A DNA stretch of 64,000 bases from Escherichia coli (GCF_036507355.1 NZ_AP027877.1), one strand, 5' to 3'; numbered from the stretch's first letter, positions 3,437-48,343 are shown. Program-made: numbers and translations. Notes: generated by a model not told the origin, from the letters alone.

Positions 3437-5148
3437 TGAGCGAAAAACATCCAGGGCCTTTAGTGGTCGAAGGAAAACTGACAGACGCCGAGCGCATGAA
3501 GCTTGAAAGCAACTACCTGCGCGGCACCATTGCGGAAGATTTAAACGACGGTCTGACCGGCGGCTTTAAGGGCGACAACTTCCTGCTGATCCGCTTCCAC
3601 GGCATGTATCAGCAGGATGACCGCGACATCCGCGCCGAACGTGCTGAACAGAAGCTGGAGCCGCGCCATGCGATGCTGTTGCGCTGCCGTCTGCCGGGTG
3701 GAGTTATCACCACCAAACAGTGGCAGGCGATCGATAAATTTGCCGGTGAAAACACCATCTATGGCAGCATTCGCCTGACCAACCGCCAGACATTCCAGTT
3801 CCACGGCATTCTGAAAAAGAACGTCAAACCGGTGCACCAGATGCTGCACTCGGTCGGTCTTGATGCGCTGGCGACCGCTAACGACATGAACCGTAACGTA
3901 CTCTGCACCTCGAACCCTTACGAGTCGCAGCTGCACGCAGAAGCGTACGAGTGGGCGAAGAAAATATCTGAACATCTGCTGCCTCGTACCCGCGCGTATG
4001 CGGAGATCTGGCTCGATCAGGAAAAAGTCGCCACCACTGATGAAGAACCGATCCTCGGCCAGACCTACCTGCCGCGTAAATTCAAAACCACGGTAGTGAT
4101 CCCGCCACAGAACGATATCGATCTGCACGCCAACGACATGAACTTCGTGGCAATCGCCGAAAACGGCAAGCTGGTGGGCTTTAACCTGCTGGTGGGCGGT
4201 GGGCTTTCCATCGAACACGGCAACAAGAAAACCTACGCCCGCACCGCGAGTGAGTTTGGCTATCTGCCGCTGGAGCATACGCTGGCAGTGGCGGAAGCCG
4301 TCGTGACAACTCAGCGTGACTGGGGTAACCGAACCGATCGTAAAAATGCCAAAACCAAATACACGCTGGAGCGCGTGGGGGTTGAGACGTTTAAAGCGGA
4401 AGTGGAGCGTCGCGCGGGGATCAAATTCGAGCCGATTCGCCCGTATGAGTTTACCGGACGCGGAGATCGTATTGGCTGGGTTAAGGGCATTGATGATAAC
4501 TGGCACCTGACGCTGTTTATCGAAAATGGTCGCATCCTTGATTATCCGGGGCGTCCGCTGAAAACCGGCCTGCTGGAGATCGCGAAGATCCACAAAGGTG
4601 ATTTCCGCATTACGGCGAACCAGAATCTGATCATCGCCGGTGTGCCGGAAAGCGAGAAAGCGAAGATCGAGAAGATCGCCAAAGAGAGCGGGTTAATGAA
4701 TGCCGTCACGCCGCAGCGTGAAAACTCAATGGCCTGCGTCTCGTTCCCGACTTGCCCGCTGGCGATGGCGGAAGCGGAGCGTTTCCTGCCGTCTTTTATC
4801 GACAACATCGATAATTTAATGGCGAAACATGGTGTCAGCGATGAGCATATCGTGATGCGTGTAACAGGCTGCCCGAACGGTTGTGGTCGCGCGATGCTGG
4901 CGGAAGTGGGCCTGGTGGGTAAAGCGCCGGATCGCTACAACCTGCATCTTGGCGGCAACCGCATTGGGACACGTATCCCACGGATGTATAAAGAAAACAT
5001 CACCGAGCCGGAAATCCTGGCGTCGCTTGATGAACTGATAGGGCGCTGGGCGAAAGAGCGCGAAGCGGGTGAAGGCTTCGGCGACTTTACGGTGCGTGCG
5101 GGCATCATTCGCCCGGTGCTCGATCCGGCGCGCGATTTGTGGGATTAA
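3436..5148 (+). CDS. cysI: sulfite reductase hemoprotein beta subunit
   Basis: 570-aa ORF with C-terminal siroheme/4Fe-4S cysteine cluster ([16 protein letters not shown] ... [10 protein letters not shown]). Confidence 0.95.
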
Positions 5149-43676: not shown

Positions 43677-44450
43677 TTGAACATCAGAACAGGGATGTGC
43701 GCTTTTTTATTGAGCTTAGTGCAGTCTGCACAGGCCACCAGCTTTACCGAATATCTGCCAATGAGTGGCAGCGAATATGCGCAAAAGCGGGCGCTGAAAC
43801 CTCTCCTGACCATGCCTTATTATACCGAGCAAACTTGGCATTTTAGAAAAATCGGCGTTGCTGGCGTGACGCTTGAGAAGATGCCAAATGAAGAGGATTA
43901 CTGGCAATTAACCGCTAAAGACCGCGCGGGTAAATCCTGGACGGTGCCAGTGGGGTTGCTGGCAAATATGGCGGGCAAAGGGCAGCTCTATCGCGCCGAT
44001 CTGGATCGTAACGGCATTCAGGATCTGGTTATCTGGTTGCCAAGTGCCGGTAATGGTCTGGCGCCCTATGCACATTTAATCCTCATGACGTTCACGCACG
44101 AAGGCCGTCCCTGTGTCTTTGAACCCTGGGGATTCTACACTGCAAGCAAAACTGGCGTAGATGATTTGCTGGATTTACAAGGCAATGGTCACACGCAATT
44201 GCTGGATATGCAGTTTAATTCTGGTTACTGGATAACCAGTCTGTATCAGGTAAAAGACGCCAAATGGCAGCGTGTTCACGGCTGGTTTGGCAAGTTAAGC
44301 TATCCCGCGCTCACGCGTTTTACTTATACCCCCAACCGTAAACTCGTCCTCAAACCCATCGCCGGGCGCGACACACAAACGGAAGATCTGTCGCTGACGC
44401 AGCGTTGCTTGATAAAGGGGGATATGCTTGATGGGGTGAATCAGAACTGA
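43677..44450 (+). CDS. secreted protein of unknown function with two FG-GAP-like D-x-D-x-N-G-x-x-D loops
   Basis: 257-aa ORF starting 24 nt after the hycI stop; N-terminal signal peptide (CAFLLSLVQSAQA|TS); motifs ADLDRNGIQDLVIW and DLLDLQGNGHTQLLD. Confidence 0.6.
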   Translation: MNIRTGMCAFLLSLVQSAQATSFTEYLPMSGSEYAQKRALKPLLTMPYYTEQTWHFRKIGVAGVTLEKMPNEEDYWQLTAKDRAGKSWTVPVGLLANMAGKGQLYRADLDRNGIQDLVIWLPSAGNGLAPYAHLILMTFTHEGRPCVFEPWGFYTASKTGVDDLLDLQGNGHTQLLDMQFNSGYWITSLYQVKDAKWQRVHGWFGKLSYPALTRFTYTPNRKLVLKPIAGRDTQTEDLSLTQRCLIKGDMLDGVNQN

Positions 44451-44611
44451 CTTTTTGCAGAGTGGTTATGAGGATTTTGGGGGTAATTATATCACGCGCA
44501 AGTGTTTACATATTGTGAACTTGGATTTGATGAGCTATAGTTTCCGAACACATGAGGATAGAACTCGCAGATGTGGCTGTTTACTTACTATAAGGAAGTT
44601 AAAACTTAAAA

Positions 44612-44923
44612 ATGCACATCATTTCTAAAGCGCCATTTGAAGAGTCTGCGCGTAAATATCCTAACGACGCTCTGGCTCTTCAGGCATTGTATCGGGTTAT
44701 TAAGGAAACGGATTTTTCTACGCCAGAAGAAATGCGAACGGCTTTTCCCAACCTCGACAATTTTAAATATCGCAACAAATGGTACGTTCTGGATGTCGGC
44801 GGGAACAATCTTAGGGTTATTGCCTACATAAACTTTGTTAATAAGCGGTTCTTTGTGAAGCACATAACGAATCACGCAGAGTATGACAAACTGACACGTT
44901 ACTACAGAGAGAACAAAGAATGA
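44612..44923 (+). CDS. HigB-like type II toxin (RelE/ParE superfamily)
   Basis: 103-aa ORF MHIISKAPFEESARKYPND ... FPNLDNFKYRNKWYVLDVGGNNLRVIAYINF, collinear with E. coli HigB as recalled; toxin gene precedes and overlaps the antitoxin gene (ATGA), the inverted order typical of higBA. Confidence 0.75.
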   Translation: MHIISKAPFEESARKYPNDALALQALYRVIKETDFSTPEEMRTAFPNLDNFKYRNKWYVLDVGGNNLRVIAYINFVNKRFFVKHITNHAEYDKLTRYYRENKE

Positions 44924-45339
44924 CTGCTAATGCTGCACGCGCTGTTAAAGCAACAAGAGAACTGGTCAATGCAGTCCCCTTTCTGGGAGGCAGTGACTCA
45001 GAAGATGATTATCGTGAAGCACTGGAACTGGTCGAATATTTGATTGAAGAAGATGACACCAATCCACTTATCGACTTTCTGGCGAGCCGCATTGCAGAGT
45101 ATGAAAACAACAACGAAAAGTTTGCAGAGTTCGACAAAGCCGTTGCGGCAATGCCGGTTGGCGTGGCGTTACTTCGCACGTTGATTGATCAACATAATCT
45201 GACCTATGCGGATTTGAAGAACGAAATCGGCTCTAAATCCCTGGTCAGTCAGATTTTGTCTGGACAACGATCCCTGACAATATCCCACATTAAGGCACTT
45301 TCAGCCCGATTTGGCGTTAAGCCGGAATGGTTTCTTTGA
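44920..45339 (+). CDS. HigA-like antitoxin (C-terminal XRE-type HTH)
   Basis: 139-aa ORF with C-terminal HTH region GSKSLVSQILSGQRSLTISHIKALSARFGV. Confidence 0.75.
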   Translation: MTANAARAVKATRELVNAVPFLGGSDSEDDYREALELVEYLIEEDDTNPLIDFLASRIAEYENNNEKFAEFDKAVAAMPVGVALLRTLIDQHNLTYADLKNEIGSKSLVSQILSGQRSLTISHIKALSARFGVKPEWFL

Positions 45340-45365
45340 TTTTGACTGATGCCAAACTCCAGATT

Positions 45366-45444
45366 GCCCGATGCGCAGTGCTTATCGGGCCTGCATAGTT
45401 CGTGCGACATGTAGGCCGGATAAGGCGTTCACGCCGCATCCGGC
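45366..45444. repeat. BIME-like pair of REP palindromes
   Basis: gcccgatgcgcagtgcttatcgggc and ggccggataaggcgttcacgccgcatccggc. Confidence 0.65.
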
Positions 45445-45452
45445 ACGGTTGC

Positions 45453-48343
<2,891 letters not shown>

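Follow-up and report, generated by a model that had tools for sequence, protein, structure and literature searches.

The region between hycI and ascB in this Escherichia coli DNA carried an intact toxin-antitoxin (TA) operon of the HigBA/SehAB family that is probably functional and autoregulated. The window, that is, the whole stretch of DNA that was analyzed, comprised 64,000 nucleotides (64 kb), and positions are counted from its first letter. The features of the cassette and its immediate surroundings were as follows.

43677..44450, plus strand: upstream ORF of 257 amino acids (RefSeq start at 43695).
44451..45339: cassette studied, beginning directly after the stop codon of that ORF and ending with the final base of the antitoxin stop codon.
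44504..44520, no strand assigned: operator Op1, GTTTACAtatTGTGAAC, an imperfect palindrome (GTTTACA-TAT-TGTGAAC) and predicted antitoxin-dimer site.
44513..44541, plus strand: predicted sigma-70-like promoter from a consensus scan, with a -35 box TTGTGA (44513-44518), a 17-nt spacer, and a -10 box TATAGT (44536-44541).
44592..44598, plus strand: Shine-Dalgarno-like AAGGAAG, 13 nt before the toxin ATG.
44612..44923, plus strand: toxin gene, 103 amino acids, ATG start; HigB family (PF09907), SehA-like clade.
44920..45339, plus strand: antitoxin gene, 139 amino acids, ATG start; HigA/SehB-like.
44920..44923, plus strand: ATGA overlap of the antitoxin start codon with the toxin stop codon.

The region corresponded to the 3' end of the hyc operon (hycG, hycH, and hycI) facing the convergent ascB and ascF genes, and three plus-strand ORFs of 257, 103, and 139 amino acids lay between hycI and ascB. 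The flanking genes were annotated in the same way by RefSeq in a 99.6% identical genome, which confirmed the hycI-ascB placement proposed in an earlier, sequence-only reading of this DNA; the limits which that reading gave for the pair, 44451-45339, agreed with the ORF boundaries. Its description of a toxin-first gene order with a 4-nt ATGA overlap was likewise borne out by the ORFs at 44612..44923 and 44920..45339. The 4-nt overlap was common to 22 of the 25 homologous loci compared, including K-12 higBA and Salmonella sehAB, and probably couples translation of the antitoxin to that of the toxin. The coding GC content was, as that reading had also stated, below that of the hyc and asc neighbors (42-46% versus 52-57%). 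The values were 0.417 for the toxin gene, 0.464 for the antitoxin gene, and 0.366 for the 161-nt upstream spacer, compared with 0.53-0.57 for hycG/H/I, 0.524 for ascB, 0.564 for ascF, and 0.532 for the 64-kb window; at third codon positions, the GC content was 0.47 in the toxin gene and 0.44 in the antitoxin gene versus 0.61-0.66 in the flanking genes. The 257-amino-acid ORF had no match in Pfam, NCBIfam, PHROGs, or PADLOC, and because it was not found next to the TA genes in other genera, it was regarded as a neighbor outside the TA system. There was neither a second copy of the toxin or antitoxin gene elsewhere in the 64-kb window nor an ORF after the antitoxin gene, where REP-like repeats (45340-45452) were followed by the convergent ascB. 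The sole matches in an Rfam search were sub-threshold hits to the REP-like naRNA4 downstream of the antitoxin gene. An adjacent SecB-like chaperone gene, as in TAC systems, was absent, and the operon consisted of two genes.

Both proteins were assigned to known families by matches that lay far beyond chance. The toxin matched the Pfam family HigB_toxin (PF09907) with an E value of 1.8e-23 over residues 22-93 (model positions 4-73 of 74), and in a phmmer search it matched K-12 HigB (5IFG_A) with an E value of 1.9e-22 over residues 1-100. The alignment with K-12 HigB was gap-free with 40 of 99 residues identical (40%), and the collinearity with E. coli HigB that the sequence-only reading had stated was therefore real. 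The AF2 model of the toxin (pLDDT 91.3) contained three helices and three strands with a C-terminal helix at residues 88-101, and comparison of this model with 5IFG_A by Foldseek gave TM scores of 0.92/0.94 and an rmsd of 1.1 A; ribosome-bound Cami1 (70S), YoeB, and RelE appeared as distant fold matches. By these comparisons, the predicted structure of the toxin had a RelE/BECR-type fold like that of the solved HigB. The antitoxin matched K-12 HigA (5IFG_B) over residues 9-138 (E = 2.5e-35) and Pfam HTH_3 over residues 85-138 (7.9e-9; nt 45172-45333), in agreement with the C-terminal XRE-type helix-turn-helix (HTH) noted previously, and its N-terminal domain is probably responsible for toxin binding and dimerization by analogy with K-12 HigA. 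Alignment to HigB/HigA thus gave a family match for both proteins, and the assignment as a HigB/HigA-like type II TA pair was supported by PF09907, the 5IFG matches, and the RefSeq names of identical proteins. The toxin was identical to WP_000547563.1, "type II toxin-antitoxin system HigB family toxin", and was elsewhere named "mRNA interferase HigB"; the identical antitoxin was named "helix-turn-helix domain-containing protein" and elsewhere "HigA family antitoxin" or "Antitoxin HigA". Since RefSeq already annotates identical proteins, the TA pair as such was already known, and the exact toxin and antitoxin sequences each occurred on at least 1000 public contigs. An NCBIfam search gave no significant family for either protein, and the searchable literature yielded neither a study of this particular locus nor a defined catalytic residue set for PF09907 toxins or the K-12 HigB active site. 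Across the toxin family, Y53, R68, H88, and Y91 were invariant or nearly so. Assignment to the HigB type of Rts1 and Proteus vulgaris (PF05015; H54, D90, Y91, and H92) was rejected, as Pfam gave PF09907 only, and the P. vulgaris HigB structures were absent from both the PDB sequence matches and the listed fold matches of the toxin. Since P. vulgaris HigB is a member of another Pfam family (PF05015), its catalytic residues were set aside as a standard for comparison.

A promoter or operator palindrome had been sought for the segment 44451..44611, and a palindrome was indeed found there at 44504-44520, over the predicted -35 box, which sat inside the right arm of Op1. The pattern GTTYACANNNTGTRAAC occurred once in the 64-kb window, at Op1, compared with an expected 0.08 occurrences. 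Alignment of the 170 nt that precede the toxin gene in 25 related loci revealed a conserved motif GTTYACA-N3-TGTRAAC, with one copy over the -35 box and the other directly after the -10 box; in 22 related loci the motif was confined to the DNA immediately ahead of the toxin gene, mostly as a pair spaced 38 bp apart. The arrangement of a -35 box within the operator and a TATAGT or TATCAT -10 box was also seen in homologous loci of other genera. In K-12 higBA the site was GTTGCCA-N3-TGGCAAC with a second similar site, and in sehAB GTTTTCA-N3-TGAAAAC was present twice. From these promoters, the family appears to have one operator architecture with differing central bases, and this difference argues for separate autoregulation of each paralogue. 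The relatives, K-12 higBA, and sehAB each had two operator sites, whereas one was intact here, and the leader was longer than those of the relatives. No second operator was detected in the window at one mismatch or fewer, and by eye 44546-44564 was at best a degenerate remnant of one. With only one intact copy, repression may be weaker or altered; similarly, the distance of 13 nt between the Shine-Dalgarno sequence and the ATG may make translation of the toxin poor. A second E. coli allele (MEI003; L027) had unrelated upstream DNA and the same operator, with a Shine-Dalgarno sequence 5 nt before the ATG.

We infer toxicity, neutralization, repression, and the molecular target from the K-12 HigBA structures and the SehAB experiments, and the operon would work as follows. 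Transcription from the promoter at 44513-44541 would produce a bicistronic mRNA, from which the 103-amino-acid toxin would be translated first and the 139-amino-acid antitoxin by coupling through the ATGA. The N-terminal domain of the antitoxin would clamp and neutralize the toxin, as in the K-12 HigBA crystal structures, and an antitoxin HTH dimer would bind GTTTACAtatTGTGAAC over the -35 box and repress the operon. On depletion of the antitoxin, free toxin would shut down translation and arrest growth.

Judged by sequence, the closest studied relative of the toxin is SehA of Salmonella enterica rather than K-12 HigB. SehA was not among the first list of homologues, and a metagenome scan with the published sehA primer gave nothing. 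Fragments of SehA and SehB were rebuilt from published primers (PMC7160566), and a query carrying the primer-derived SehA peptides recovered the representative of the SehA cluster (P0306), whose locus (L026) adjoined fdhE and a second TA pair. This locus reproduced the published identities of approximately 40% to K-12 HigB and 46% to K-12 HigA, which confirmed it as SehAB. Three Salmonella proteins with 67-69% identity (P0032, P0027, and P0029) were considered as SehA and rejected, as their loci were prophage-like with a 139-amino-acid antitoxin. SehA (STM4031) also has 103 amino acids, and the toxin was 56% identical and 75% similar to it in a gap-free alignment. Alanine substitution at Y53, D61, H88, Y91, K93, T95, Y97, or Y98 abolishes SehA toxicity (PMC12817084), and all eight residues were identical, at the same positions, in the toxin studied here; the AF2 model placed H88-Y98 on the C-terminal helix (residues 88-101), which agrees with the description of SehA. 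Among the SehB residues targeted by mutagenic primers (Y32, L42, L52, I60, S107, L121, L129, F133, and F140), 9 of 9 were kept in the antitoxin.

SehA has been reported to inhibit RNase III and not to cleave mRNA, not itself being an RNase (PMC12817084). It binds RNase III's dsRNA-binding domain, its toxicity depends on rnc, and 5'-end sequencing located the induced ends in rRNA leaders rather than in coding regions (PMC12817084). K-12 HigB, on the other hand, has been described as a ribosome-dependent mRNA interferase cleaving translated mRNAs (PMC11980606), and the present toxin could instead be a canonical interferase of this type that moves into the A site of the ribosome and cuts mRNAs undergoing translation, with no part for RNase III. 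PF09907 is common to the toxin and K-12 HigB, the folds were nearly identical (TM 0.92, rmsd 1.1 A), the distant fold matches Cami1 (70S), YoeB, and RelE are ribosome-dependent RNases, and Y53, R68, H88, and Y91 appear to resemble the Arg/His/Tyr sets of RelE-type RNases. The in-vitro RNase assay of SehA, moreover, used total RNA without ribosomes, so that it leaves room for ribosome-dependent cleavage and weakens the transfer of the RNase III route to this toxin. The canonical interferase is accordingly a serious candidate, to which we nevertheless assign less than an even chance, for the toxin was closer to SehA (56%) than to K-12 HigB (40%), D61, K93, Y97, and Y98, which are needed by SehA and missing in K-12 HigB, were present, and SehA toxicity is rnc-dependent with the induced 5' ends in rRNA leaders. 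Action by the RNase III route, as in SehA, is put tentatively at only a little short of even; it was slightly favored because the toxin was nearer to SehA and kept all eight SehA-critical residues.

The distribution of the cassette was examined in 5426 complete E. coli genomes, with the toxin gene scored by its first 273 nt. This part of the toxin gene was present in 1091 genomes and the full-length antitoxin gene in 2508. Both genes were found in 1091 genomes, the antitoxin gene only in 1417, the toxin gene only in 0, and neither gene in 2918. Every copy was single and chromosomal, and it was located at the hycI-ascB site in all loci examined. The alleles at this site included the full islet (747 genomes), the TA genes without the 257-amino-acid ORF, the 257-amino-acid ORF with an orphan antitoxin (deletion of approximately 44486-44884), a 55-amino-acid ORF remnant with an orphan antitoxin (deletion of 43847-44890) in genomes such as that of strain 536 and others like it, ST131 included, and a K-12-type "empty" site. 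At least two different deletions took away the promoter together with toxin codons 1 to about 91-93 but left the antitoxin in place. When the empty site (L030) was compared with the window by short-word BLAST, the following junctions were identified.

44447..44450, no strand assigned: left CTGA microhomology of the probable deletion by which K-12-type "empty" alleles lost the whole cassette.
45346..45349, no strand assigned: right CTGA microhomology, where the empty allele joins.

The TA cassette thus behaved as an 899-bp indel (44451..45349). The empty site kept collinear remnants of the 257-amino-acid ORF, from its start (43683-43698) and its end (44427-44440), before the CTGA join to 45346. 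In view of these remnants, the "empty" site is most simply explained as a doubly deleted derivative, a reading that is well supported, not proven, by remnants as short as 16 and 14 nt. The cassette occupied this single site in 46% of the complete genomes, and with deletion scars in the K-12-type empty site it was recognized as an old, decaying resident of the hycI-ascB site. The horizontal acquisition proposed in the sequence-only reading stood in part: a foreign origin would agree with the low GC content, but E. coli has had the cassette for a long time. Its suggestion that the pair might stabilize the islet was contradicted, as most E. coli genomes had the islet in eroded form or not at all.

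Selection on both genes was purifying. Within E. coli, dN/dS was 0.17 for the toxin gene and 0.04 for the antitoxin gene, on few sites; between genera, dS was saturated and dN was 0.12-0.27. The orphan antitoxin gene of strain 536 differed by seven synonymous changes and one non-synonymous change. A functional toxin would be expected to give the pattern seen here, in which the toxin was repeatedly lost and the antitoxin spared but the opposite never occurred, although the 1417-to-0 counts overstate the statistical weight because few independent deletion events, inherited clonally thereafter, lie behind them. The decay itself raises the alternative of a silent relic, in which the genes are intact, the toxin is barely expressed or weakly toxic, and the pair is kept by drift. 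Consistent with this, more than half of the carrier genomes were already without the toxin, 54% of genomes had lost everything at the site, one of two ancestral operators was left, and the Shine-Dalgarno spacing was long; SehA was described as only mildly toxic in rich medium, in a paper that has been retracted and must be taken with caution. We consider a relic improbable, since the antitoxin was kept in all 1091 toxin-bearing genomes with the toxin alone in 0, the toxin was annotated as intact in every copy shown among the sampled genomes, dN/dS was well below 1, and all experimentally critical SehA residues were kept.

The closest relatives of the pair (65-81% identity) were found in Leclercia, Mangrovibacter, Pantoea, Kluyvera, Citrobacter, and Photorhabdus. 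Homologues occurred on 1047 plasmid records, 653 of them from Klebsiella, and in Cronobacter phage JK004, and others adjoined genes for Cro-like and HTH regulators in Salmonella prophage-like regions. Such mobility is typical of TA cassettes. Toxins on plasmids and prophages of Enterobacteriaceae were 70-80% identical to the E. coli toxin, and it is conceivable, though rather unlikely, that the toxin acts as SehA does, binding RNase III and so blocking the maturation of rRNA instead of cutting mRNA, with the full-length orphan antitoxin retained as an "anti-addiction" or immunity factor. If this is true, a mechanism reported only recently would be present in about 20% of E. coli strains, and the orphan antitoxin in a further 26% (including 536 and ST131) would counter plasmid and prophage toxins.

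A role in phage defense had also been suggested for the pair, which was therefore considered as a possible abortive-infection module devoted to phage defense, with kinship to PD-Lambda-2 or other TA-based defense systems. The two proteins matched the PADLOC profiles PD-Lambda-2_A (6.8e-16) and PD-Lambda-2_B (2.4e-14), and close homologues lay beside Cro-like and HTH regulators in Salmonella prophage-like regions, where defense cargo is typically located. PD-Lambda-2, however, consists of three genes, including one for an HTH-peptidase fusion of approximately 400 amino acids and a P4-antitoxin-like third gene required for defense, and its second protein is the toxic one (PMC9519451). The antitoxin studied here had 139 amino acids and covered positions 9-115 of the 402 in the PD-Lambda-2_B profile only; there was no third gene, with REP-like repeats and ascB downstream, and the neighbors were the hyc and asc metabolic operons rather than a defense island. 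The suggestion was not upheld, as PD-Lambda-2 was the only match in the defense library and the pair did not belong to it, and a dedicated defense module is very improbable at this locus. For the clade's mobile copies, defense or plasmid/prophage maintenance is plausible, but nothing supported either for the chromosomal copy.

The analysis confirmed the automated annotation and added the link to SehAB, the operator at 44504-44520, the recognition of an old decaying cassette, and the 1417-to-0 asymmetry. The locus gains in SehAB a better reference than the K-12 HigBA label, and the practical value of this is small. The pair offers a convenient E. coli system for asking whether RNase III inhibition is general in the SehA-like branch of PF09907, for which natural controls exist in strains with the full cassette, the antitoxin only, or neither, and the strict imbalance of antitoxin-only against toxin-only genomes illustrates cleanly, at the population level, how TA modules decay.

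In sehAB the toxin gene also came first with an ATGA overlap, and palindromes of the form GTTnnCA-N3-TGnnAAC likewise lay over the -35 and -10 boxes; the half-site was GTTTACA here and GTTTTCA in sehAB, and one intact operator was present here. The sehAB genes adjoin fdhE and sehCD, whereas the present pair was located between hycI and ascB, and the antitoxin was three residues shorter than SehB (STM4030.S) and 45% identical to it. The pair was ruled out as an orthologue of SehAB by its different locus, the identities of 56% and 45%, and its different operator bases. The antitoxin was equidistant from K-12 HigA (46%) and SehB (45%), and because it was no nearer to SehB than to K-12 HigA, the pair represents a third clade that is nearer to SehAB on the toxin side. 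K-12 HigB and HigA (YgjN and YgjM; 5IFG and 6KML, and 5YCL from Shigella) belong to the same Pfam families as the two proteins, and K-12 higBA has the same gene order, 4-nt overlap, operator architecture, and fold (TM 0.92). It differed in its locus, in its operator sequence (GTTGCCA-N3-TGGCAAC), in the identities of 40% for the toxin and 46% for the antitoxin, and in that K-12 HigB retains four of the eight SehA-critical residues, with N61, F93, V97, and H98 in place of D, K, Y, and Y. PD-Lambda-2 (Vassallo et al. 2022) resembles the present pair in having a HigB-like first gene and a second gene with a HigA-like N-terminal part, but its peptidase domain and third gene were both missing here. 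The mobile members of the clade (plasmids of Leclercia, Enterobacter, and Klebsiella, phage JK004, and Salmonella prophage-like regions) had toxins 67-81% and antitoxins 71-78% identical to those studied here, with the same lengths (103 and 139 amino acids) and the same operator motif, GTTYACA-N3-TGTRAAC; their promoters carried two operators and their leaders were short. They lay on mobile elements, in contrast to the E. coli copy, which was fixed at one chromosomal site.

The DNA of the antitoxin gene of the HigBA/SehAB-type pair (44920..45339) was 100% identical between the window and the E. coli strains of comparison loci L032, L033, and L034. In the same strains, the adjacent 257-aa open reading frame (dS 0.15–0.31) and hycI (dS about 0.17) had clearly diverged from their window counterparts. 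Because the antitoxin DNA was identical while these adjacent genes were diverged, the alignments suggest that the cassette, or the antitoxin remnant that some strains carry without an intact toxin, spread recently by recombination between E. coli lineages. The diverged reading frame was located as follows.

43677..44450, open reading frame of 257 aa (251 aa from the RefSeq start at 43695), between hycI and the toxin–antitoxin pair

Among the comparison loci, this frame was seen only in those of E. coli, and K-12-type genomes, which lack the cassette, keep remnants of it. Its alleles shared 84–99% amino acid identity, with dS up to 0.31 and dN of 0.085, and were unusually divergent compared with the adjoining hycI. 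The N-terminus, judged by eye, looks like a Sec signal peptide (…LVQSAQA/TSF), and the protein had no match in Pfam, NCBIfam, PHROGs, or PADLOC.

On the other side of the cassette, the following repeats were found.

about 45365..45458, REP-like repeats, between the antitoxin gene and ascB

These repeats accounted for the roughly 165,000 places returned by megablast, and sub-threshold matches to the Rfam family naRNA4 fell at 45402–45458. In some strains, IS621 (IS110 family) was inserted within the REP-like region between the antitoxin gene and ascB (L032, 2086–3066; L033, 2199–3179).

Two versions of the leader preceding the toxin gene, without recognisable similarity to each other, occurred in E. 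coli (44521..44611 in the window; 4917–5003 in L027, the locus of strain MEI003), and the palindromic operator and the AAGGAAG Shine-Dalgarno sequence were common to both. In the window leader, a TTAAAA-like duplication places the toxin ATG 8 bases farther from the Shine-Dalgarno sequence than in L027, a difference that could lower toxin translation.

In Leclercia adecarboxylata NCTC13032 (L004, about 4328) and Kluyvera YDC799 (L009, about 4365–4377), the antitoxin frame was broken in a homopolymer run of A or G, with the toxin gene intact; such breaks may be either sequencing errors or a real toxin-only state. Copies of the pair in Salmonella enterica contigs (L021–L025), with 67–69% identity to the window toxin, lay in prophage-like regions and were flanked by genes for P22 Cro/YdaS-type and HTH regulators. 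Toxin homologues were also very common on plasmids: a search of a plasmid collection gave 1047 records, including 653 from Klebsiella and 303 on conjugative plasmids, and on the Leclercia plasmid pLA-109 a gene of the H-NS family preceded the homologue by about 1 kb.
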